DNA of 32,000 nt from an uncultured Erysipelotrichaceae bacterium (GCA_942492995.1 OW818653.1:1320001-1352000), one strand, 5' to 3'; shown: positions 9,542-29,733, counted from the first letter of the stretch. Notes: a model not told the origin generated them from the sequence alone. Numbers and translations: made by a program.

Positions 9542-10897
9542 CTATCTATTTTTTAAAGGAATATAGGACTGATTTTCACCCAGTGTAATATACGCTGGAC
9601 GCATGATTTTATCATCTAAAATCTGCTCTAATCGATGTGCTGACCAACCTGCTATACGACTTATCGCAAAAACCGGTGTATACAAATCTTCAGGGATATT
9701 TAGCATATCTAATACAAACCCTGCATAGAAATCTACATTCGCTGCCATACTGTTATCATTCTTCACTTTTTCATTAAGTAGTGCACAACCATAACGTTCA
9801 ATGTCCGCATAGAGATTATACTCTTTAACCCTATTCTTGTGAAGTGCTAATTGATACGCTTTTTCTTTTATGATGATTGTTCTAGGATCGGATAAGGTAT
9901 ATACCGCATGTCCTAATCCGTAGATTAAACCTTTATTATCAAATGCCTCTTTCTTTAATATCTTTCTTAAGTAATCTTTTAATGATTCTTCTGTATAATC
10001 CAACGATATATGTTCCTTTATATCACTAAACATTTCCGCAACCATCTTATTCGCTCCACCATGTTTTGGACCTTTTAGTGCACCAAGTGCTGTCGCAATC
10101 GCTGAATATGTATCTGTGCCAGTTGATGAAACCACATGTGTTGCGAACGATGAGTTATTCCCCCCACCATGTTCAGCTTGGATAACGAGTAGTAAATCGA
10201 GTATTTCTATTTCTTCTTGGGTTACTTTACCATCTGGACGAATAAGGTATAAGAAGTTCTCCGCAGTACCTACACCTTTTTTAGGAGTATGGATAACTAA
10301 GCTATCATGATTGAAGTAGTGGCGTTTCGCTTGATAGCTATAAGCCGCTAATAAAGGGAGTTTAGCAATCAAGTCAATGGATTGTCTAAGTACATTCACA
10401 ACGCTTATATCATCAGGATTATCATCGTATGAGTAAAGTGTTAAGACCGTACGTTGAAGTTTATTCATTATATTAGGCGCTGGTATTTTGAGTATGACAT
10501 CCTCTTTATAATGACGTGGTAATTCTCTACGATCTTCAAGTGCTTGATTAAATTCTTTTAACTCTTGAGCATTTGGACATTTACCAAATAATAGTAAATA
10601 GATAGTTTCTTCGAAACCCAAGCGTTTCTCTTCTTGGAATCCTTTGACTAAATCAAACAGATTATATCCACGATAGTAGAGTTGTCCATCAATTGGAATC
10701 TTCTTATCATTTTCTTTACGATAGCCTATAACTGAACCTACACGTGTAATCCCAACTAAAACCCCTGTTCCATTTTCATTACGTAATCCACGTTTAATGT
10801 TATGTTCAGGATATAGTTTTGGATCAATTGTATTTTTTTCTTCAATGATTTTTGACCATTCTTCTAAATGGGTATCAAATTCATTATTTTTTCGCAT
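9542..10897 (-). CDS. gltA: Citrate synthase (Si-type citrate synthase family)
   Basis: Contains HGGANKM and GLGHAVYTLSDPR motifs, typical of citrate synthase. I prefer the ATG at 10897 (AAAGGTG 6 nt upstream) over the GTG at 10906 used by the ORF track. The start lies 14 nt inside the end of the upstream gene. Confidence 0.88.
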   Translation of the reverse strand: MRKNNEFDTHLEEWSKIIEEKNTIDPKLYPEHNIKRGLRNENGTGVLVGITRVGSVIGYRKENDKKIPIDGQLYYRGYNLFDLVKGFQEEKRLGFEETIYLLLFGKCPNAQELKEFNQALEDRRELPRHYKEDVILKIPAPNIMNKLQRTVLTLYSYDDNPDDISVVNVLRQSIDLIAKLPLLAAYSYQAKRHYFNHDSLVIHTPKKGVGTAENFLYLIRPDGKVTQEEIEILDLLLVIQAEHGGGNNSSFATHVVSSTGTDTYSAIATALGALKGPKHGGANKMVAEMFSDIKEHISLDYTEESLKDYLRKILKKEAFDNKGLIYGLGHAVYTLSDPRTIIIKEKAYQLALHKNRVKEYNLYADIERYGCALLNEKVKNDNSMAANVDFYAGFVLDMLNIPEDLYTPVFAISRIAGWSAHRLEQILDDKIMRPAYITLGENQSYIPLKNR

Positions 10898-11933
10898 AGA
10901 ATTCACCTTTTAATTCTTGGATAATCATTATTAATTTGTGTGTAAATGCTTTGGTATCTAATGGACCTTTAATATCCTTCGTAAAGTTTTCCTTATTCTG
11001 ATATACGTTATTAATCGAATATCTTAATAATTTAGCTTCTCTTGGATAATTCAAATAATCCAGCATTAAACTCGCACTTAATAACATGGCTGTTGGATTC
11101 GCAATTCCTAATCCCGCAATATCTGGCGCTGAACCATGTGTCGCTTCAAATAATGCTTTATCTACCCCAATATTCGCACCCGGCACAAAGCCTAGTCCAC
11201 CGACTAGTGCGGCACCTAAATCAGATAAGATATCACCATATAAATTCTCGGTCACAATCACATCAAATTGATTTGGATTTAAGACCATTTGCATGCACAT
11301 ATTATCAACGAGGATTTCAGTAAACTCGATACTTGGATAGGATTTTGATACATCTCGTACTGTATCTAGGAATAACCCATCACTTAATTTCATAATATTC
11401 GCTTTTGTGACAACCGTTACTTTTTTACGTTTATGTTGAATCGCATAATCAAATGCGGCTAACGCGATTCGTTTACTCGCAGGTCGTGTTATTACTTTTA
11501 TACTACGCGCTTCATCATCACTTACTTTCTCTTCTAAACCCATATAAAGATCTTCAGTATTTTCTCTAAACAACACGATATCTATATCATGATAATGACT
11601 TGGTACATTACCAATGGATTGAATTGGACGTACACAAGCAAATAAATCATAACGTTTACGTAACTCAACATTTATACTGCGAAATCCGGTTCCTATCGGT
11701 GTTGTGATTGGCCCTTTTAACGCTACTTTATTTTTCTCAAAGCTTGTGTAGATTTCTTCTGGCACAAGTATTCCTTTTTCTTGATAAACCGCTAGTCCTG
11801 CATTGTGCTCTTCCCAGACAATATTTACATCAAGTGCTTGAATTACTTCTTTAGTAGCTTGCGTTATTTCAGGTCCAATTCCATCACCAGGAATTAGTGT
11901 TACGACAATTTCATCACGATAATGATTTTGCAT
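10884..11933 (-). CDS. icd: Isocitrate dehydrogenase of the isocitrate/isopropylmalate dehydrogenase family, probably the NAD-type short form
   Basis: 349 aa with LIPGDGIGPEI, FRENTEDLY and ENLYGDILSD motifs of the beta-decarboxylating dehydrogenase family. The isocitrate specificity is inferred from the flanking aconitase and citrate synthase genes. Confidence 0.8.
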   Translation of the reverse strand: MQNHYRDEIVVTLIPGDGIGPEITQATKEVIQALDVNIVWEEHNAGLAVYQEKGILVPEEIYTSFEKNKVALKGPITTPIGTGFRSINVELRKRYDLFACVRPIQSIGNVPSHYHDIDIVLFRENTEDLYMGLEEKVSDDEARSIKVITRPASKRIALAAFDYAIQHKRKKVTVVTKANIMKLSDGLFLDTVRDVSKSYPSIEFTEILVDNMCMQMVLNPNQFDVIVTENLYGDILSDLGAALVGGLGFVPGANIGVDKALFEATHGSAPDIAGLGIANPTAMLLSASLMLDYLNYPREAKLLRYSINNVYQNKENFTKDIKGPLDTKAFTHKLIMIIQELKGEFYAKK

Positions 11934-13827
11934 AGTTAAGATAACCTCCTTTGATTAAGATTTCACGTTCTCTTGGAGTCGCGTTTAGCTTAACTACGAT
12001 ATCTTGGTTTTTTGTCTTATTAAATACAGTAAATACTTCATCTTTTTGAACATGTTCTAAGAGATTACTAAATACAAGTTCATCGCTTAATTCGAAATCA
12101 GTAGATTCGATAACTAATGGTAATATTCCAACATTGATTAAGTTTGAACGATGGATACGTGCATAACTCTTCGCAAGAACTGCTTTTATTCCTAAATATA
12201 AAGGAATAAGTGCCGCATGCTCACGCGATGATCCTTGTCCATAGTTTTCTCCACCAATGACAATTCCACCTTTAAGTTCTTTAACACGATTCACAAATTC
12301 TGTATCGATTCCGTGGAAACAATAATCTGCTAAATAAGGGATATTCGAACGATATGGTAAGAGTTTTGCGTAGGATGGGACAATATCATCTGTTGTCACA
12401 TTATCTTTTGTGATAAGTACAACATTACGACTAAATTCATCGTCTAACGCGTTTGCCTTAGGGAATGGTTGAATGTTTGGACCTAATGCGATTTCAATGG
12501 ATGAAGGGTTATCACTTGGATAAATAAAGTATCCATCAACTTTACCGAATGATTCGGGTTCTTGAATATCAAAGCTTAGATTTAAATCATTTGGATCAGT
12601 TAAAACACCCATTAGGGCTGATGCGGCAGCTGTTTCAGGTGACACTAAATAAACTTGTGCATTTGCAGTACCAGATCTTCCTTTGAAATTACGATTAAAC
12701 GAACGAACGGAAATACCATTCGAGCGAGGTGCTTGTCCCATCCCAATACATGGTCCACAGGATGATTCTAGAATACGTGCTCCTGCAGAGATTAATGTGG
12801 ATAATCCACCATTTTCGGATAGTAATCGCAATATATTTGCGGAACCTGGCGAAATAACTAAACTAACATTTGGATGTATTGTTTTACCTTTTAAGATTGA
12901 GACAACTTTCATCATGTCTGTATACGAAGAATTTGTGCAACTTCCTACCGCTACTTGATCAACTTTTAAGCCTTGTACAGCTCTTACTTCTACAACATTA
13001 TCTGGCATATGAGGTTGAGCAACCATTGGTTTTAATATACTTAAATCAATCGTAAGTGAATAATCATATTTGGCATCATCATCAGCTGATAATTCGAGAT
13101 AATCCTCCGGACGTCCTTGTTGAGTAAGATAATGAAGTGTGTTCATATCACTTGGGAAGATTGAAGTGGTCGCACCAAGTTCAGCTCCCATGTTACAGAT
13201 TGTTGCACGATCGGTAACGCTAAGATGTTTTAATCCATCTCCTGTATATTCCATCACAAAGCCAACACCACCTGTAACACTTAGTGTTTGTAATACTTTA
13301 AGAATAATATCTTTTCCATTTATGATAGAGTTTGGTTTATTTATTAATTTTATATTATAGACTTTTGGCATAATGATTGTGGTCATACCCGTTGCCATCG
13401 CAACTGCTACATCCAAACCACCCATACCAATCGCAATTGCGCCTAATCCACCTGCAGTAGGTGTATGGCTATCTGAACCTAGGAGGATTGTGCCTGGTTT
13501 AGCAAATCGTTCTAAATGTACCTGATGACAGATGCCCGCTCCAGGTTTACTAAAAATAATGCCGTGTTTTTGCGCTACCGATTGGATGAACGCATGATCA
13601 TCCGCATTTTCATATCCAGTTTGAAGCATGTTGTGATCAATGTACGCAACGCTACAATCCGTCTTTACTTTATCAACATCCATAGCTAAAAACTGTAAGT
13701 AAGCCATAGTACCTGTTGTATCCTGTGTTAAGGTTTGATTTACTTGTAGTCTTATTTCCTGTCCAGGGGTTAAAGACCCCGCACGTAAGTGATTTTCAAA
13801 TAGTTTATACGTAAGTGTTTTTTTCAT
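11914..13827 (-). CDS. acn: Aconitate hydratase (short form of about 640 aa)
   Basis: 637 aa with the Fe-S ligand context GSCTNSS and CGPCIGMG, plus the GSDSHT motif. GGAG lies 5 nt before the ATG. The TGA stop at 11914-11916 lies inside the icd start region. Confidence 0.9.
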   Translation of the reverse strand: MKKTLTYKLFENHLRAGSLTPGQEIRLQVNQTLTQDTTGTMAYLQFLAMDVDKVKTDCSVAYIDHNMLQTGYENADDHAFIQSVAQKHGIIFSKPGAGICHQVHLERFAKPGTILLGSDSHTPTAGGLGAIAIGMGGLDVAVAMATGMTTIIMPKVYNIKLINKPNSIINGKDIILKVLQTLSVTGGVGFVMEYTGDGLKHLSVTDRATICNMGAELGATTSIFPSDMNTLHYLTQQGRPEDYLELSADDDAKYDYSLTIDLSILKPMVAQPHMPDNVVEVRAVQGLKVDQVAVGSCTNSSYTDMMKVVSILKGKTIHPNVSLVISPGSANILRLLSENGGLSTLISAGARILESSCGPCIGMGQAPRSNGISVRSFNRNFKGRSGTANAQVYLVSPETAAASALMGVLTDPNDLNLSFDIQEPESFGKVDGYFIYPSDNPSSIEIALGPNIQPFPKANALDDEFSRNVVLITKDNVTTDDIVPSYAKLLPYRSNIPYLADYCFHGIDTEFVNRVKELKGGIVIGGENYGQGSSREHAALIPLYLGIKAVLAKSYARIHRSNLINVGILPLVIESTDFELSDELVFSNLLEHVQKDEVFTVFNKTKNQDIVVKLNATPREREILIKGGYLNYAKSLS

Positions 13828-13960: not shown

Positions 13961-15145
13961 ATGGAATATCGTTTCGCAAAAAGATCGAGTAATGTAGAAG
14001 ATTCATTTATTGTTGAGATTTTTAAGTACCTACAAGACAAAGAAATGATTTCATTTTCTGGTGGTTTTCCTAATCCCGAATCATTTCCTGTTGAACAACT
14101 TAGACAAGCTTCAAATAAGGTTTTCGAGTTAGATGGTAAGTCTGTTTTACAATACTCCCAAACCGAAGGCTATAAACCATTACGCCAATTCATCTCGAAT
14201 CGATATAAGAATTTGTATAATCTTGAAATTCCTTATGACGAAATACTTATTACATCTGGTTCCCAACAAGCCCTTGATTTTATTTCTAAGACATTTATTG
14301 ATCCAAATGATTCAGTTATTGTGGAAGAACCTTCTTATCTTGGAGCTCTGCAAACATTCGGTAGTTATGAAGCTGACTTTCTAACTGTAGAGTTACATGA
14401 GAACGGAATTGACTGTGAAGTCCTTGAACAAAAGCTTATTCAATATAATCCAAAATTGATCTATATTATTCCTAACTTTCAAAATCCAAGTGGTGTTTCC
14501 TATTCAGAAGAAAATCGCCAATTATTTGCGAGTATTGTTAAACGCTTTAATGTGATCGTGATTGAAGATGATCCATATGGAGAAATCTATTTTACGAATG
14601 ATAAACATACACATATAAAATCACTTATTCCTGATCAAGTATTGTTAATGGGTAGTTTCTCAAAGACTATTTCTCCTGGTTTACGTTTAGGTTGGGTGTG
14701 TGCACCTAAAACAATTCATAAAAAGTTATTCACATGTAAAGAAGCTTCTGATTTACATAGTAGTTATTTAGATCAACGTATTATCTATCAATACTTATTG
14801 GATAATGATTACGATGAACATCTTAATAAAACACGTTCTATGTATCATTTTAAACAAACGCAAATGTTAGACGCAATTACGAAGTATTTCCCAGAAAATG
14901 TTAAAGTATATCCTTCAAACGGCGGTATGTTTTTATGGGTTGTATTACCAGAGTATATTTCTTCATTAGATTTATTCTATGAAGCAGTTAAAGAAAAAGT
15001 AGTATTTGTGCCAGGTGATCCATTTTATGTAAATAAACAGAACACGAATGCATTTAGATTAAATTTCTCAAATGCGTCTACCGAGAATATTGAAGAAGGT
15101 ATTAAACGATTAGCAGGTGTTATATCAAATAAAATAAAAAAATAG
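13961..15145 (+). CDS. PLP-dependent aminotransferase, class I/II fold, ARO8/LysN-like (COG1167 type without an HTH domain)
   Basis: 394 aa with ISFSGGFPNPESFP near the N-terminus, the SFSKTISPGLRLGW PLP-lysine motif and an NFSNAS C-terminal motif. RBS AAGGGG lies 6 nt before the ATG. Confidence 0.85.
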   Translation: MEYRFAKRSSNVEDSFIVEIFKYLQDKEMISFSGGFPNPESFPVEQLRQASNKVFELDGKSVLQYSQTEGYKPLRQFISNRYKNLYNLEIPYDEILITSGSQQALDFISKTFIDPNDSVIVEEPSYLGALQTFGSYEADFLTVELHENGIDCEVLEQKLIQYNPKLIYIIPNFQNPSGVSYSEENRQLFASIVKRFNVIVIEDDPYGEIYFTNDKHTHIKSLIPDQVLLMGSFSKTISPGLRLGWVCAPKTIHKKLFTCKEASDLHSSYLDQRIIYQYLLDNDYDEHLNKTRSMYHFKQTQMLDAITKYFPENVKVYPSNGGMFLWVVLPEYISSLDLFYEAVKEKVVFVPGDPFYVNKQNTNAFRLNFSNASTENIEEGIKRLAGVISNKIKK

Positions 15146-19671: not shown

Positions 19672-22600
19672 CTAATAATCAGCTTCTTCTTCCTTACCAT
19701 CCCGAGTCATTTCAGGAGGAAGGGTTAATTCTTCTTGTAATCTACGATTCACTTCATCGCGTTTTTCTTTCATCGCTGCAGCCATTGCGGTAATCGTAAT
19801 GGTACTTTCACGACTTGTATGTGAACCCGTTCCTGCCGGTATTAATTTACCGATAATAACGTTTTCCTTAAGACCTAACAAGTGATCCACTTTACCCTTA
19901 ATTGACGCATCAGTTAAGACTTTAGTTGTTTCTTGGAAGGACGCAGCTGATAAGAATGAATCTGTTTCAACGGATGATTTAGAAATACCTAACAAGACAG
20001 GTTTGAAGGTTGCAGGGCGTTTACCGCTCAATAAGACTTTCTTATTAATGTTTGTAATGTTTGGTAAACTCAATTGAACACCAGCACTTAAGTGTGTATC
20101 GCGTCCATCAGTAACAACAACTTTACGTAACATTTGCTTAATCATAACTTCAATATGTTTGTCAGAGATTTCAATCCCTTGACTTTGGTAAACTTTTTTA
20201 ACTTCCTTCATGATGTAGTTTTGTACACTGTGTACGCCACCTACTTCAAGAAGTTCCTTAGGATCGATATGATCTTCGGTTAATTTATCCCCTGCTTCAA
20301 TAACAGTACCCACTTTAATCCATGGTCTGATATGTTGCGTCAAGGATGCGAAGTGTTCAACACTTTCCTTTTCGTTTGTAACAACGATACGCATTAGTAA
20401 GTCTTTATTACCACGTGTTTCTTCAGAACCTTCAATTGTCTTGAATGATTCTAAGTCACGGATCTTCTTGAACTTAAGTTCTTCTGCGTTAACAACGGAT
20501 AGTAAGTAAGAATAGATATTCGGGTCAACCCCTTCAATCGTAGTAACAGTTCCAGAAATCTTCGATAATAGCGCAGGTTTCTTAGGACGACGTGCTTCAA
20601 AGAGTTCTTCAACACGAGGTAAACCTTGTGTAATATCTCCCCCTTCAGCAGCCGCAACCCCACCAGTATGGAAGGTACGCATGGTTAACTGAGTACCTGG
20701 TTCCCCAATGGATTGAGCAGCCATAATACCAATCGCTTCACCAACTTCAACTTCTTTACCAGTCGCCATGTTACGTCCGTAACATTTCTTACATACACCG
20801 TAGATGGATTCACAACTGAATACAGTACGGATTAAGACTTTCTTGATTCCAGCTTCTACAATACGACGAGCGATATCATCGGTAATGATTTCATCACTTT
20901 CGATAATAACTTCGTTTGTTGTAGGATCAACAACATCTTCTTTAACATAACGTCCAATTAGACGATCGAATAAACTTTCAATAACTGAGTTTGTCTTACG
21001 ATCTACGATATCTTCCATAACGTATGCACGATCGGTTCCACAATCCTCTTCAGAAATTAGAACATCTTGCGCAACGTCAACAAGTCTACGTGTCAAGTAA
21101 CCAGATTCAGCTGTCTTCAATGCAGTATCGGTTAGACCTTTACGCACACCGTGTGTAGAGATAAAGAACTCAGACACGTTTAGACCTTTACGGAAGGAAG
21201 AGTAGATAGGGACTTCGAATATGGATGTCGCATATTTACGTTCACGTAATGCTTCAACCTTAACGGCATCTCTGACTTCAGTTCCAACTGATTCAGGTGT
21301 ATAGGATACTTCGTTATCTTTAACTTCTAAGAAACGTTTGTATGAAATCTTGTTCGAATCAACGAGTTTCTTCGCTAAATCAATGTATGATTTCTCGAGA
21401 TCTGCGTTGTTTTCTTTTAATTGTTTTAATTCTTCTTCATTTAAGTGTTGAAGAATCTTTTCAGAATCAGATTGGATCAACTTACGTGTCTTAGAAATTA
21501 ATTCACGACGTTGCCATTTTGTAATATGTTCTTCTGAAACTTTGTTTTCTGCGATTAGATTTTCCGCAACACCACGGATTAGTTCAAGATTCTTACCTTT
21601 TGATTCAATCAAAATTTCAGCTTGAATTCCAGTTAATGCACTACGGATTTCTGCCGCATCAGAGATTAACATTTCGATGATTAGTTTCTTAGTATCTAAA
21701 CGATCTAAGAAGTCTTGATCAATACGATTTGCTTTAATTAACTCTAAAGCGATAATTGGGAATTGTTTACGTTCTAATTGGTCTAATTCATATGTTTCTT
21801 CCACAATTGACAAGACTTCTTTAGCCCCTTCTTCTAAATAACTAACAGTCTTAGTTACCATAGATTTTAGGGTTAAGTATTCTTCTAATTGTACTTGAGT
21901 GAAACGTCCATCTTCGATGACCACATCACTAATATGTTTGTATGAATCAGCTTTTAGTTTCTTATCTTTGTGTTCATTTAACGCAATTACTTCTTCAGCA
22001 CTGAGTAATTCAATGATGAAATCGTCTTGGTTCTTTAAGCCTTCGATAATAACTTTACGTAATTCAGCTTTTTGTAATAATTCATCGTCAAGACGAAGAT
22101 CATTGATTAAGCTTTCGATTAATGGTTTTAATTCTTCTGAACGTTGTTTCTTACCTTTGATGTTTTTAAGAATGATCTTATCATCATCACTGAGTAAGTC
22201 GACAATTTCAGGAGTTGCTAAGGATAAATGTTCAGCCAACAAGGAAGATTTTTCCTTACGGATATCACTTTCAAGTTTTTGTAACATGGACATTGATACA
22301 CGGTTTTCATCGACCAAGTGTTCAGACAATACATTAATGTACTCATCTTTATTGGTACGTTTTAGACGTAGTGAATCGATATCTCTAGCGGAAGTCATAT
22401 TCTTAATGAAGCTACTTTCTTTTTCAAGGTGCTTCTTAATAAATTCAGGAACAAGTAATAACATATGCGCTTGTTGAACGCGTTTTAGATTCAATGAATT
22501 ATCATTCATTAATTCTAATGCGAAGTTACGCAATGCTTCATGGTTCTTTGTACGGTTAATGGATTGAAGTTCTAATTTCTGATCTGGTGTAAGTAAATCT

Positions 22601-25458
22601 ACAATCATTTCAGATTCTTTGTTTAACAATTCCATAACAGTTACGCGTAATTGACGAGAGATTTCAGCTTTATGCAAGGTTTCTTCAGTTACACGGTTTT
22701 CTTCAACTAAACGACGAGCAAGTGCTTTTAGTACTTCTGAGCGTTCTTTCAAGTCTTTAATTGTTTTTAACGTTTTAATTTCGTTAGCGTGTAATTCACC
22801 AAAGATTTCCTTGGATTCTTCTTTCAATAAATCGAGAATTAAGCTTTGTTTTTGCCAAGAAGATGTTGCTTTACGCAAGATATCATCTAAGCCTTCTTTT
22901 TTCTTACGATCGACGATACTATCCCCAACGCTGCGAATAAACTCAGCACGTTGAGTATGATCTTCAATTGTTTTAATCTTTTCAATATCATCACTTGGAA
23001 TCAAGTAATCAAGTACACCCCATTCAATCAATGCAGTAACTTTATCGATTAGAGGTTCTTTGTTCTTAGTAACATCTTCTGATTCGTATTGTTGTAGTAC
23101 ATCACCACTTGTAGCCGCTTTGAATGGTTTACCCATTAATCCACGAGTACCCGCTAATTGCGTAAAGTGAGACGCATTACCACGCGCACCAGATGTTTTC
23201 ATCATATTGATTGGATTCTTACGAGGTAAATGTGCTTCCAAGTCTTTTCCAATTTCTGATTTGATACGATCCCATAATAACGTAACATGGCGTTCCCACT
23301 CACGAGGCGTTAGACGTCCACGTTGGCGTAATTCCATTAAACGAGATTCTTGGATCTTACCTTGTTCTACAAAGTTCGCAGTATTAGGAGATACGACGAT
23401 GTCGCTTAACGCAACGGTCATACCAGCAATCGTTGAGTACTTAAATCCATTGTCTTTGATCTTATCTAAGATGATCGAAGTTTGGGATGTTCCATAACGA
23501 TTGAACACTTCGGAGATAATTGTTCCTAAGTCTTTCTTCTTATAGTCCTTACTGATTGGTAATTGTGCAATGTAATCTTTGACGTTTTGACCTTGAGCTA
23601 AGAAATAACGTTCAGGTGTTGCGACAAAGTTTTCTTTAGTGACTTCATTTAAGTATGGGAAATCACTTGGGAACATTTCATTGAAGATTAACTTACCAAC
23701 AGTTGTGATTAAGTATGATTTGTTTTGAGCTTCTGTAAACGCATCTTTGTGTAATGTACTTGCTTTAACCGCAATACGTGTATGCAAGTGAATTTGCTTA
23801 TTTTCATACGCAATTACTGCTTCATTGATATCACGGAAAACATGACCTTCATTCTCACCGAATAAATGCCACATCTTAGCTGCTTCTTTATCACCAAGTG
23901 CTTCAAGAATTAATGCTTTTTCATAGTATTCAGATGCTTTTTCTTCCATGTTTAAGTAGAAGTTACCCATAACCATGTCTTGGGATGGTGTAACGATAGG
24001 CTTACCATCTTTAGGACCAAGAATGTTATTGGAACCTAACATCAACACTTCGGCTTCAGCACGTGCTGATTCAGAAAGTGGTACGTGTACCGCCATTTGG
24101 TCACCATCAAAGTCCGCATTGAACGCTGGGGTAACAAGTGGGTGTAGACGAATTGCACGTCCTTCAACTAGTTTTGGCATAAATGCTTGGATACCAAGTC
24201 TATGAAGCGTAGGCGCACGGTTTAGTAATACTGGGTGGTTTTGAATAACTGCTTCAACAACGTCCCAAACGCGTGGATCTTGACGTTCAATCAATTTCTC
24301 AGCACTCTTAGGATTTGATGAAATACCACGGTTTACGATTTCGTTAATAACGAATGGTTTGAATAATTGGATAGCCATTTCACGTGGAATACCACATTGG
24401 AACATTTTTAGATCTGGTCCAACGGCGATAACGGAACGTCCGGAGAAGTCAACACGTTTACCAAGTAAGTTCTGACGGAAACGACCTTGTTTACCTTTTA
24501 AGCTATGGGACAATGATTTTAATGCACGACCGCCAGCCCCTGAAATAGGTTTTGAACGACGTCCATTGTCAATCAATGCATCAACTGCTTCTTGAAGCAT
24601 ACGTTTTTCGTTTTGTACGATAATCGCTGGTGTACCCATATCAATGAGTTTACGTAAACGATTATTACGAGTGATAACACGACGGTATAAGTCATTTAAA
24701 TCACTTGTTGCGAAACGTCCACCATCCAACTGCAACATTGGACGTAAATCTGGTGGAATAACTGGAAGCATGGTTAATACCATCCATTCCGGTTGGTTAT
24801 GAGAATTTCTGAATGCATCAATGGTTTCTAAACGTTTGATTAATTTCTTACGTTTATCGCCTTGTGCTTCTCTTAAATCTTCAATAACTGCTTTATGTTC
24901 TTTTTCAAGATCAACACGTTCAAGAAGTTCTTTAACCGCTTCAGCCCCAGTTTTAGCTGTGAATGAACCGTATCCGTAACGACGTGAGAAGTTACGGTAT
25001 TCTTGTTCGGATAAAATTTGTTTGAATTGAAGAGGTGTGCTTCCTGAGTCAGTAACAACCCATGAAACGAAATATACAACTTCTTCTAAGTTCTTAGGTG
25101 TAATCCCTAAAAGTAAGCTCATACGTGAAGGAATACCACGTAAATACCAGATATGTGCAACTGGTGCAGCAAGTTCAATATGACCCATACGTTCACGACG
25201 TACAGATGATTTAGTTACTTCAACTCCACAACGGTCACAAACAACCCCTTTGTAGCGCACTTTCTTATATTTTCCACAGTAACATTCCCAGTCCTTGGAA
25301 GGTCCGAAGATACGTTCGCAGAATAAACCATCACGTTCAGGTTTTTGTGAACGATAGTTAATGGTTTCTGGTTTCTTAACTTCACCATGGGACCATTCAC
25401 GAATTAATTCAGGAGAGGCTAATCCAATCTGAATCGCAGCAAAATTGTTTATACTCAT
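19672..25458 (-). CDS. rpoC: DNA-directed RNA polymerase subunit beta-prime, unusually long (1928 aa) because of a large internal insertion
   Basis: N-terminal Zn finger CYCGKYKK...CDRCGVEV, catalytic [12 protein letters not shown] (aa 447-458), bridge helix [34 protein letters not shown] (from aa 1432) and trigger loop [10 protein letters not shown] are all present and collinear. There is a 12-nt gap after rpoB. Confidence 0.97.
21226..23124 (-). other. In-frame lineage-specific insertion of about 633 aa in beta-prime (aa 779-1411), built of degenerate tandem repeats of about 60-69 aa
   Basis: The insertion is flanked by the conserved [12 protein letters not shown] (ends aa 778) and [14 protein letters not shown] (starts aa 1413). 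From memory, B. subtilis has only about 3-5 residues between the equivalent segments. Confidence 0.85.
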
Positions 25459-25470
25459 GCCGGTCTCCTC

Positions 25471-28400
25471 CTATTCTTCTTCGCCAAGGTCTTCGTAATC
25501 ATCGGCTCCGACGATCGCGGCCTCAGCGATAAATTCTTCATCATTTTGTAGATCTGCAACTGCTTCAATCTCTTCATCAGGATTAACCGCAACCGCATCT
25601 TCTACTTCTATTTTCTTCATACCAACTTCATCCCCTTGTTCATCAAGAAGACGTACATCGATACCTAATGCGTTTAATTCATGTTTTAGAACTCTGAATG
25701 ATTCTGGAACTCCAGGTTCAGGAATATCTTTACCCTTAATGATGGCTTCATACGTCTTAGTACGACCCATGATATCATCGGATTTAATGGTTAAGATTTC
25801 TTGTAATGTATGCGCAGCACCATATGCTTCAAGTGCCCAAACTTCCATTTCCCCGAAACGTTGTCCACCATTTTGTGCTTTACCACCTAAAGGTTGTTGC
25901 GTTACTAGAGAATAAGGACCTGTTGCACGTGCATGCAATTTATCGTCAACCATGTGGGCTAACTTGATCATATACATGACCCCTACAGAAATACGTTCAT
26001 CGAATGCTTCACCAGTACGACCATCAAATAGAGTAGTCTTACCATCTTCACTCATTTCAGCTTCACGTAGAATGTCTTTTAAATCTTCATTGTTAATACC
26101 GTCAAAGACTGGAGTCGCAAATTTAACGCCTAATTTCTCAGCCGCTAAACCTAAGTGAATTTCAAGTACTTGTCCGATGTTCATACGAGATGGAACGCCG
26201 AATGGGTTTAACATGATATCAACTTGTGATCCATCAGGTAGGAATGGCATATCTTCCACTGGTAAAATCTTAGAGATAACCCCTTTATTACCGTGACGTC
26301 CAGCCATCTTATCCCCTTCAGAGATCTTACGTTTTTGAACGATATATACTTTTACAACTTCATTAACTCCTGGAGGTAAATCATGTCCTTCTGAACGTTT
26401 GAATATACGTACAGATTGAACAATACCACTACCACCATGAGGAACTTTAAGTGAGTTGTCACGAACTTCACGTGATTTATCACCGAAGATTGCTAATAAT
26501 AATTTTTCTTCTGGAGAGATTTCGCTTTGTCCCTTAGGTGTAACTTTACCAACAAGGATATCGCCTTCTTTAACTTCTGCCCCGATCATAACGATACCGC
26601 GTGCATCTAAATGACGGCATGCATCTTGAGAAACGTTTGGAATATCACGAGTGATTTCTTCAGCTCCTAATTTAGTATCGCGTACTTCAATGTCATATTC
26701 TTCAATATGGATTGATGTGTAGACATCTTCTTTAACGAGACGTTCTGACATGATGACCGCATCTTCATAGTTGTAGCCATACCAAGTCATAAATGCTATT
26801 TTAACGTTTTGACCTAAAGCCAATTCACCATTTTGCATCGCTGGTCCGTCCGCTAAGACATCCCCACGATCAACCATTTCGCCTTTTTGTACAAGAGGTT
26901 TTTGATTGATACATGTTCCTTGGTTAGAACGTTTGAATTTTTGTAGAGCATAAACTTTTTCGCCTAAATCACCCATGATTACAATCTTATTCGCATCAAC
27001 ATATGTAACTAGACCTTGTTGAGTTGCGATAACAGCAGAACCTGAGTCAGATGCGATACGGTGTTCAATACCTGTACCAACATATGGAGAATTAGGACGT
27101 AATAGAGGAATTGCTTGACGTTGCATGTTCGCTCCCATTAGGGCACGAGACGCATCATCGTTTTCTAAGTAAGGAATACAAGCAGTCGCAACAGAAACAA
27201 TTTGCTTAGGTGAAACGTCGGCTAGTTCAACCATTTCTTTCTTCGCAAGAATGTGGTCTCCCTTATAACGTACGACAACTTCATCATGTGCAAGTTTTCC
27301 ATCGATAACTTCATTTGCTTGCGCAATGTAGTAATCCATTTCATCATCAGATGATAAGTAAAGTACTTTTTCATCAACGGTTCCATCTTTATTAACAACA
27401 CGGTATGGTGTTTGGATAAATCCATATTCATTCACACGACCATAAGATGTTAAGTTAGAGATCAAACCGATGTTTGGTCCTTCTGGTGTTTCAATCGGAC
27501 AGATACGGCCATAGTGGGATGCATGTACGTCACGGACTTCAAAGCCAGCGCGTTCACGAGTAAGACCACCAGGTCCTAGAGCTGAGATACGACGTTTATT
27601 GGTTAATTCAGCCAATGGATTGGTTTGATCCATGAACTGTGATAATTGAGATGATGAGAAGAATTCTTTAATCGCCGCTGTTAATGGACGGATATTTGTT
27701 AAGTTCTTCGGCGTTAAGTTTGTATTGTCAGTAATTGACATTCTTTCCTTAACAACTCTTTCCATACGGGATAGACCAATACGGAATTGATTTTGGATAA
27801 GTTCTCCAACAGTACGAATACGACGATTACCTAATTGGTCAATATCATCTGTTTCACCCACTCCATCATCAAGATTGAGTAAGTAATCAAATGAAGCGAT
27901 CATATCACTCATCGTTACAGTCTTCTTCGTCATTAATGGATCTGTACCGATGACTTTAACAACATCTGTACTTTCCTTAGCGTAACAAAGAACTTGTTGA
28001 ACAGCTGCACCAATCAACCAAGCTTCAATACCATTGTTTGAACCAACTAGATTCACAAGAGCTTGTTCTTGATCTGATTTAAGTTTCGCAACTGCTTCAC
28101 TTGGTAAGTAACGATCAACTAATAATTCTTGATTGCTTGTAAATACGTCTTGATCCTTCGCAGTAATACGACCTAAGACAAACAAACGTTGTCCATAGTT
28201 CAACACTGCACGAACATTGTTCTTATCTAAAACAACACGACGCGCAATAATACCACCATAGATTTCAATGTGTTCATAAACAGATGCTAAAGCTTCGACA
28301 TCATTGGATGTTAAAACTAAGCCCTTATCATATGTAACACCATTTACTTCACATTCAATCGCTAATACACGACCGATTAGTGCAAACGGATAAGCTGTAC

Positions 28401-29652
28401 TTACTTTTGCATTTTCAGGATAGGAGAATAAAGCATTGAAAGGGAATGCTTCCATATGATGACCTTGATTCAAGATTTCATTTAGGATAGCTTTTTCTTC
28501 ACGTTCAATCTTAGTACCCTTCGCAATAACAACTTGACCTTTTGAGTTAACAATGTCCTGTGCAACGATATTATTGATTAAACGATTTGTAACACCTAAT
28601 TTTTTACCTAATTTAAAGCGTCCTGCTTTAGTTAAGTCATAACGACGTACATCAAAGAATTTTGCACGCATTAAGTTAATCGCACCTTCTTCAGTCGCGA
28701 TTTCATCTGAACGTTGGTTGTTATAGATTTCGTATAGAGCTTCTTTAGTTGTTTTGATTTTGTCAGATACTAGTGTATTAACAACTTCAGGATACTGACC
28801 AAAGAACGCAGTATAAAGTAGAATATAGAGATTTAAAAATTCTCTAGGTTCAACTTCCATTTCAATTTCATTAACAGGAAGTTTTAATGATTGTAGGAAG
28901 ACTTTGAACGCAGACGTATCAAAAGCATCTTCACCACGTTCCATATCTAAAGAGAAACCAATCGCTTTAAATAGGATGGAAGATAATATTTTACGTTTAC
29001 GATCAATACTCACATTAAAGTGGAAGTCTGATGTATTTTGTCCCACATTTTCGCCAGAATAACTAGCTTGTGGATTATTTGCTTTTTTGTAAGCCGTCAT
29101 AAATTCAAGCCATGTACCACGACTTGGAATTAATTCGCTCTTGTAAACTTCATTTAAGCTTGCTTCTTTATCCTTCATATAGAAAGAGTCATAGTAAGCT
29201 CCAGGAGAACGAACAATTTGGGAAACGATAACACGTTCAGCCCCATTAATAACAAATGTTCCTGTATCAGTCATAAGTGGGAATTCACCCAAGAAGACTT
29301 CTTCATGACGTTCTGTTATTTCACCGGTGGTTGGGTTTGTGATTTCTAACATCATCGTCGCTTTTAATGGCGCCGCATAGTTAGCTTCTCGTTCTTTACA
29401 TTCACTGACGGAATATTTTGGTTCTTGAAATTCATAGTTTAAGAAATTTAAACGAATGTTCCCTGTATAGTTGGTTACAGGATAAATTTCTTCAAATACT
29501 TCACGAATACCCTCGCGTTTAAACCAATCAAAAGAATCGGTTTGAATTTCAACTAAGTTAGGAAGTTCTAAGCTTCCACTAACTTTTGAGTAATCGCGGC
29601 GTTTAGCTTTTTTACCGAATTCGACAACGCGGTAATTCTGTTTTTTCTCCAT
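25471..29652 (-). CDS. rpoB: DNA-directed RNA polymerase subunit beta (1393 aa), with expanded N-terminal lobe regions
   Basis: Contains the Rif-cluster sequence [34 protein letters not shown], plus NYEDA and GRHGNKGV motifs. I place the start at the ATG at 29652 because AAGGAAGG lies 5 nt upstream. The track ORF adds 20 implausible residues. Confidence 0.97.
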
Positions 29653-29733
29653 ATACGCCTTCCTTTCATATATAAATGACACAAAAATGGGCATTCTTTC
29701 CCATCGTATCATTTAACATTTATGCAATTTATA

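Follow-up and report, generated by a model that had tools for sequence, protein, structure and literature searches.

What occupies the 633 residues that interrupt the beta-prime subunit of RNA polymerase in an uncultured Erysipelotrichaceae bacterium, and what might they do there? The question is raised by a stretch of 32,000 nucleotides (GCA_942492995.1, OW818653.1:1320001-1352000; hereafter the window, with positions counted from its first letter), in which rpoC lies at 19672..25458 on the minus strand and, from its open reading frame (ORF) and translation, encodes a beta-prime protein of 1928 amino acids (aa). All five Rpb1 core domains are present in the product, Pfam RNA_pol_Rpb1_1 to Rpb1_5 being matched in order (E 3e-84 to 1e-10); domain 4, however, stops at aa 791 and domain 5 restarts only at aa 1425, with no credible Pfam match in between. 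An earlier note, made from the DNA alone, had read positions 21319-23043 as a tandem array of 8-9 degenerate helical units of ~60-69 aa, and these positions (aa 806-1380) do fall inside the insert as delimited here (aa 779-1411). To that reading the present analysis adds the exact site at the tip of the F-loop, a strict invariance of length, and strong purifying selection.

The host gene is identified as rpoC by the Rpb1 domains 1-5, the F-loop and bridge-helix motifs, and the gene context, which are all present; the minus-strand order is rplJ, methyltransferase, rpoB, rpoC, rpsG, fusA, tuf. The first strand of the F-loop, RGLMGKP (aa 772-778; 23125..23145, minus strand, as are all rpoC features given below), was located by phmmer against the beta-prime chains of the PDB. 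Its last residue, P778, falls opposite P750 of E. coli beta-prime and the equivalent B. subtilis residue: query residues 2-140 match E. coli 599-752, residues 3-139 match B. subtilis 619-755, and the solved chains align at most ~10 residues into the insert. The whole insert begins directly after P778 and comprises 633 aa (aa 779-1411; 21226..23124), after which the translation resumes with the second F-loop strand and the start of the bridge helix (aa 1412-1437; 21148..21225), a motif common to all related beta-prime fragments. Bounded by RGLMGKP and IFEVPIY, the insert belongs to the F-loop, which precedes the bridge helix, and not to the trigger loop. On these alignments it is placed at the tip of the F-loop hairpin, in the position of the three-residue tip and just upstream of the bridge helix, and it is ~621 aa longer than the 12-13-aa loop of its nearest relatives.

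Internal repetition of the insert is significant by four independent tests. When the nine units were compared pairwise by gapped Smith-Waterman alignment, the mean score was 43 against 27.0 ± 0.9 for shuffled sequences (z = 18). Reversed units, which preserve both composition and helical periodicity, served as a further control: the means were 39.7 for the units and 28.2 for their reversed counterparts (Mann-Whitney p = 9e-6), and 28 of the 36 best pairwise alignments kept register to within 6 residues. A profile built solely from orthologues of unit 1 matched seven of the eight other units in register at 8-23 bits, while the reversed sequence reached no more than 0.5 bits with this profile and no more than 5.2 bits with the profile of any unit. 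Finally, an hhalign profile-profile self-comparison, which makes no use of the anchor motif, returned off-diagonal alignments shifted by whole units, one covering 408 columns (98.2% probability, E = 4e-14) and another covering 300 (97.3% probability, E = 2e-11). Periodicity above a shuffled control had been set in the earlier note as one test of its claim, and the signal stands far above shuffled and reversed controls alike. Ungapped autocorrelation, in contrast, was not significant (best z ~3, against a 95th percentile of 3.56 for shuffled sequences), since the length of the unit varies (60-69). MAFFT brings the nine units into a single 73-column alignment in which their hydrophobic positions coincide; any two units are 15-31% identical.

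The array consists of nine tandem units of 51-69 aa, of which seven are clear and two, units 0 and 6, are weak, so that the upper count of the original description is the one obtained. The nine anchor motifs and all six companion motifs listed there were recovered at exactly the beta-prime residues given, the successive anchors being spaced by 69, 66, 65, 69, 63, 60, 61 and 64 residues. The array is preceded by an N-terminal connector (aa 779-800; 23059..23124), which is almost invariant. Unit 0 (aa 801-851; 22906..23058; anchor IVDRKKK) is a weak copy that aligns in register, its aa 822-851 being matched by the unit-1 profile at 8.0 bits. Unit 1 (aa 852-920; 22699..22905; LVEENRV) is defined by motif position, alignment and helix pattern, and the profile joins these three lines of evidence for unit 2 (aa 921-986; 22501..22698; LMNDNSL), unit 7 (aa 1244-1304; 21547..21729; LIAENKV) and unit 8 (aa 1305-1368; 21355..21546; LVDSNKI). 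Motif position, profile and alignment likewise define unit 3 (aa 987-1051; 22306..22500; LVDENRV), which falls within the two-unit structural model described below, and unit 5 (aa 1121-1183; 21910..22098; VIEDGRF), which carries an invariant KDKKLKA. Unit 4 (aa 1052-1120; 22099..22305; LINDLRL), also within the two-unit model, is matched by the unit-1 profile at 22.7 bits and is the best conserved of the nine, with an invariant KGKKQR.EE.KP. Unit 6 (aa 1184-1243; 21730..21909; LIKANRI) is the most divergent and least conserved; it is missed by the unit-1 profile, yet it stands in register in the alignment and keeps the four-helix pattern. A C-terminal connector (aa 1369-1411; 21226..21354), made up of one further long helix followed by a conserved helix, leads back to the F-loop.

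Structure prediction gave a consistent picture of the unit. AlphaFold2, run on the whole insert with a shallow alignment composed of the window sequence and protein fragments of the same clade, returned a purely helical and strikingly periodic model (predicted local distance difference test, pLDDT, 68; predicted template modelling score, pTM, 0.52). Eight times over, a one-turn helix is followed by helices of 9-13 and 13-17 residues, then by a five-residue loop and an 18-25-residue long helix; this series is preceded in unit 0 by a similar, shorter pattern with helices at insert residues 23-34, 39-41, 44-52 and 56-77. A second model, of units 3 and 4 together (aa 987-1120), for which the alignment consisted of the window's own double units, showed the same helix pattern with better scores (pLDDT 83, pTM 0.66). 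Neither model contains a strand, and the helices are short and regularly interrupted, so that no continuous coiled coil is formed. The predicted unit has four helices: one long, one of a single turn and two of medium length. Their arrangement is repeated eight to nine times, where unrelated globular domains would have spoken against the earlier note. Both connectors are of low confidence when modelled in isolation, the affected stretches being the first 37 insert residues (pLDDT < 50) and the last 38.

In these models the anchor, L(V/I)(E/D)(E/D)N(R/K)(V/I)(S/T)xx.L, extends from the last part of the third helix, across the loop, into the first turn of the long helix, and would thus form the five-residue turn that joins the units. 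By the general rules of helix capping, its simplest reading is that of a helix cap and staple turn rather than of a functional motif, with N as the C-cap, V/I ... L as the hydrophobic staple and S/T/D as the N-cap. Such a reading would account for the anchor being the best conserved part of the unit without assigning it a functional role. For the elongated alpha-solenoid or rod-like shape suggested in the earlier note, the site sets a condition: an insert in the tip of a hairpin needs its two ends close together, which a straight rod would provide only if it had long connectors.

The insert is shared by a group of close relatives. Carriers comprise the window and 11 others, seven loci from a genome scan and four from a metagenome scan, giving 12 independent assemblies; all seven genome records are metagenome-assembled genomes of Erysipelotrichaceae, and the carriers are all from one clade of uncultured members of this family. 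Identity of the insert to that of the window is 99, 91, 89, 89, 80, 80, 80, 80, 79, 66 and 55%. Even at 55% there is no insertion or deletion: RGLMGKP and FISTHG stand exactly 653 aa apart in all 12 sequences, and nine units are detected by profile in every one, a comparison of repeat number among relatives that the earlier note had proposed. The insert evolves faster than the core, as seen in the most distant member (L007), where the insert is 55% identical and the core 81-88%. In pairs with unsaturated synonymous change, the ratio of nonsynonymous to synonymous substitution (dN/dS) is 0.059-0.086 for the insert, as compared with 0.044-0.059 for the flanking core. Selection on the insert is hence nearly as strong as on the core, and values this low argue for a folded, selected domain. 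Across the 12 orthologues, the two connectors and unit 4 are the most conserved parts of the insert, with invariant columns amounting to 65% in the N-terminal part (aa 779-821), 57% in unit 4 and 53% in the C-terminal connector, as against 20% in unit 6.

Three observations on individual sequences were made alongside this comparison. One orthologue (L006, CAYWGS010000012.1) has an rpoC without 48 aa of highly conserved core, equivalent to window aa 308-355; this gap probably reflects faulty assembly or binning and not a true deletion. Two fragments that are 96-97% identical to the window rpoC (P0001 and P0009, from the same 2949-bp contig) are labelled 'Ignavibacteria bacterium' at NCBI, and because all other carriers are Erysipelotrichaceae this contig is almost certainly mis-binned. 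Opposite the insert, an antisense ORF runs from 21899 to 22477 on the plus strand (192 aa, GTG start). It was rejected as a gene, since synonymous divergence is not reduced there (proportion of synonymous differences 0.51-0.54 in the insert versus 0.43-0.48 in the core), and most likely results from a codon content rich in K, E and L.

One unit, duplicated internally in the distant past, gave rise to the array, which is now constant in length and in the number of its units. DNA-level matches between units extend over only 15-31 nt and lie under conserved motifs, which argues that the duplication is old; no long DNA-level repeat was found within the insert. The old amplification proposed in the earlier note is borne out by this lack of long DNA identity, by the 15-31% identity between units, and by the fixation of nine units in all 12 orthologues.

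As to where the array arose, we joined the two flanks without the insert and searched for related proteins; all 120 matches listed, those on megabase contigs included, were of 464 aa or less, so that this search is blind to inserts larger than ~400 aa. Eighty-six of the matches listed span the junction, and 71 of these have the canonical three-residue tip, with 22 aa at the equivalent of the RGLMGKP-to-FISTHG distance, while the other 15 have a tip of 12-13 aa and a distance of 31-32 aa. No tip of intermediate length was present among these 86 matches, all of them no longer than 464 aa. The closest junction-spanning proteins among those listed are 63-70% identical and carry the 12-13-aa loop, e.g. 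KP-TQSKSKHGYQSS-IIEVPIY. This short tip extension, TQSKSKxGYQxS, is lysine- and serine-rich and occurs in the beta-prime of related Erysipelotrichales and Tenericutes, as opposed to the three residues of Bacillus and E. coli. The ends of the insert (FKAATSG ... KYATS) align with both ends of the 12-13-aa loop, which suggests that the array grew inside a loop that was already extended; the short extension seems, therefore, to have been the seed site of the large insert.

No relative of the unit was recovered outside this clade. A nine-unit profile, run with HMMER against 1.84 billion cluster-representative proteins, matched two fragments of the same clade and one marginal candidate, a HEAT-like repeat/NTPase protein (E = 4e-4), which we regard as spurious since only 26 profile positions are covered. 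No free-standing protein with the unit was thus present among the 1.84 billion representatives, behind which divergent rpoC copies could sit if the representative lacks the insert; indeed, full-length insert-carrying RpoC proteins are probably hidden in clusters of this kind. Protein searches with the insert and with a profile of eight orthologues gave only four same-clade fragments, a result of little weight given that the search yielded no long proteins. Among PDB sequences there was no significant match to the unit (arginine repressor, at E = 0.38), and a Pfam scan of the nine units one by one, with E values up to 10 allowed, found no family in more than one unit (best E 0.004). Foldseek with the insert models gave nothing significant (best E 1.5-1.9 in the PDB and 0.8 in BFVD); sigma-70, its top match, was discarded as a structural relative at E = 1.9 and a template modelling (TM) score of 0.12-0.32. 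A reading of the anchor region as a SAP or Rho-N-like helix-extended-helix was dropped, as it found no supporting profile or fold match. No match to the unit was seen elsewhere in the window or in the orthologue loci. The earlier note could not name the repeat family, and these searches of Pfam, PDB sequences, the protein representatives and the Foldseek PDB and BFVD sets leave it unnamed; at the level of sequence, it is a family without detectable relatives.

Large lineage-specific inserts in the beta and beta-prime subunits are well known, and the closest parallel is Si3 (beta-prime insert 6) of cyanobacteria and chloroplasts. Si3 has 645 residues and is described as the largest known lineage-specific insert (PMC10895346). 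The insert of the window resembles it in size (633 aa versus 645 aa), in being built of tandem modules (nine units here, approximately eight copies of one module in Si3), in its place at the end of a mobile hairpin next to the active site, and in being fixed within a clade. It differs in that Si3 is found in the trigger loop, in cyanobacteria and Gram-negative bacteria, whereas the present insert is in the F-loop, in Erysipelotrichaceae. The Si3 modules are moreover interdigitated and of the beta-rich sandwich-barrel hybrid motif (SBHM/HABAS), whereas the units described here are contiguous in sequence and predicted to be four-helical. BEAN and BBM2 inserts, with their beta-containing bracket fold, are likewise unlike the all-helical prediction without a Pfam match obtained here.

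A structure-based survey of 2024 lists seven beta-prime insertion sites with HABAS, BEAN and sLC folds only (PMC11515920). The word 'helical' is absent from that survey, so no helical-repeat insert is described in it (PMC11515920). Our insert shares with the catalogued beta and beta-prime inserts the character of a clade-restricted domain in a conserved polymerase subunit, and differs from those of the survey by fold. No Erysipelotrichia rpoC insert or F-loop insert was found in the literature, the Lane and Darst 2010 catalogue not being covered. The short tip of related Erysipelotrichales and Tenericutes, KP-TQSKSKxGYQxS-IIEVPIY, occupies the same position but has 12-13 aa and no repeat.

The array may also be set beside the classical helical repeats. 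HEAT, ARM, TPR, PPR and Sel1 units are ~34-47 aa long and have two or three helices. Like these, the array is made up of tandem all-helical units with low identity between copies; unlike them, its units are of 60-69 aa with four predicted helices, and no Pfam repeat family (ankyrin included) was matched. Lineage-specific polymerase inserts being already known, we rate the novelty here as lying in the host element, the fold class, the unnamed repeat family and the near-record size.

What such a domain may do is suggested by the element that carries it. The F-loop is an adaptable element that modulates, and promotes, trigger-loop transitions (PMC3874190). The bridge-helix cap, which includes the F-loop, has a ligand pocket that opens to the secondary channel (PMC4029172). 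The P750L substitution in E. coli beta-prime alters translocation, catalysis and the response to pauses, with slower forward translocation and less pausing (PMC3959191). Because the F-loop controls trigger-loop folding and bridge-helix conformation, and because the residue that precedes the insert aligns with P750, we propose that the insert is a regulatory or steric module, comparable to Si3, that is coupled to the dynamics of the F-loop, trigger loop and bridge helix, a proposal in which we place roughly even confidence. A rigid mass of ~70 kDa, tied by two conserved connectors to the F-loop hairpin, would couple to the motion of that hairpin. An external mass on a mobile active-site element could then tune catalysis and pausing, as Si3 would in the trigger loop, and a domain on the secondary-channel side of the enzyme would be able to limit or mediate the access of other factors. 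Si3 itself shields the secondary-channel site of Gre and DksA and swings with trigger-helix folding (PMC10895346).

Several considerations weigh against this proposal. The domain probably sits near the secondary-channel side, a placement derived from the location of the F-loop and not computed. The swing of Si3 is reported to be without effect on catalytic activity (PMC10895346), so a large insert beside the active site need not tune catalysis. Lastly, the conserved basic clusters of the array suit contact with nucleic acid or protein equally well as a purely mechanical role. A more far-reaching version of the proposal would hold that no large structured domain has been described before within the F-loop of any multisubunit RNA polymerase, that the repeat family of this one was born in rpoC without relatives in other proteins, and that it serves as a ~70-kDa lever or gate linking the F-loop, trigger-loop and bridge-helix cycle to DNA, factor or secondary-channel access; taken as a whole, we hold this version only tentatively and consider it somewhat doubtful.

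The basic residues raise a further possibility, namely an arm in which basic loops arranged in line make contact with DNA, either downstream or upstream, or with RNA, either nascent or backtracked, and so alter promoter opening, processivity or termination. Of the residue classes in the insert, the basic one is conserved best, with 58% invariant (hydrophobic 47%, acidic 41%) and 74% of basic positions always basic. The invariant clusters RKKK (aa 851-854), KGKKQR (aa 1101-1106) and KDKKLK (aa 1164-1169) recur at the same spot of successive units, in the loop that joins helix 2 to helix 3, and the head of Si3 reaches upstream DNA (PMC10895346). We nonetheless consider such an arm unlikely, as the insert is net acidic in every orthologue (-16 to -31; isoelectric point 5.3) and matches no known nucleic-acid-binding family or fold in Pfam, the PDB or Foldseek. 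Much the same degree of doubt applies to a built-in scaffold, which would bring in a factor specific to the clade or stand in for a transcription factor lost by the lineage. Many helical repeat arrays dock proteins, the predicted all-helical array has invariant surface residues specific to individual units, and its strict length suggests a precise binding geometry; no partner is known, however, and nothing unusual is encoded beside rpoC in the window, where the order is the standard rplJ ... rpoB-rpoC ... rpsG-fusA-tuf. Both the arm and the scaffold are compatible with the Si3-like module that we favour.

Two explanations that deny the insert any role of its own fare worse. A neutral or weakly tolerated expansion of a surface loop by low-complexity, coiled-coil-like filler might be suspected from the composition, rich in K, E and L, and from the faster evolution of the insert relative to the core noted above. 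It is contradicted by the selection data and appears highly improbable, given a dN/dS close to that of the flanking core, the lack of insertions and deletions in 12 assemblies, the conserved connectors, and the modelled helices, too short and interrupted for a continuous coiled coil. Similarly, a large and sharply bounded insertion in a conserved gene, with a G+C content slightly below that of its surroundings (~36-42% across the window), could bring to mind an intein, another mobile element, a fused foreign gene or an assembly artefact. The results contradict this idea, to which we attach next to no credence. Pfam finds no Hint, intein, LAGLIDADG or homing-endonuclease domain, the junctions KP/FKAA and YATS/IFEV (F at the start, T-S at the end) are unlike splicing residues, and the insert is predicted to be all-helical. 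No homologue was found outside the rpoC clade, and the insert is in frame in 12 independent assemblies.

Elsewhere in the window, rpoB (25471-29712, minus strand) is also long, with an ORF of 1413 aa, although its true start is likely the methionine of MEKKQNY, 20 codons downstream of the ORF start. When it is set against the solved beta chains of Firmicutes, two additional segments stand out in its lobe region, at approximately residues 190-287 and 407-565 counted from that methionine, which add roughly 60 and 130 aa. A beta insert 4 of two BBM2 modules has been reported in Mollicutes (PMC2939025), and an insert of that type may account for one of these segments. Downstream of tuf, at 9542-13827 on the minus strand, genes for citrate synthase, isocitrate/isopropylmalate dehydrogenase and an aconitase-family protein stand in a row, followed by a class I/II aminotransferase (13961-15145, plus strand); a compact block of genes for the oxidative branch of the tricarboxylic acid cycle thus adjoins the translation/transcription cluster.

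Several inhibitors act on the F-loop, the bridge helix and the trigger loop, which together form the moving centre of every cellular RNA polymerase. That a natural enzyme keeps a 630-aa domain at the tip of its F-loop implies that this element can bear a large load, and provides a natural test case for the coupling of F-loop motion to catalysis, as Si3 does for the trigger loop. An essential gene appears to have been the birthplace of the repeat family, and if the predicted structure holds, an all-helical repeat would widen the range of folds among polymerase inserts, which are otherwise beta-rich (SBHM/HABAS, BEAN). Since clustering at 50% identity conceals such inserts behind insert-less representatives, more of them may exist unnoticed. 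Should the lever or gate reading prove true, the insert would represent a mode of elongation control in this clade of Erysipelotrichaceae that has no counterpart in model bacteria.

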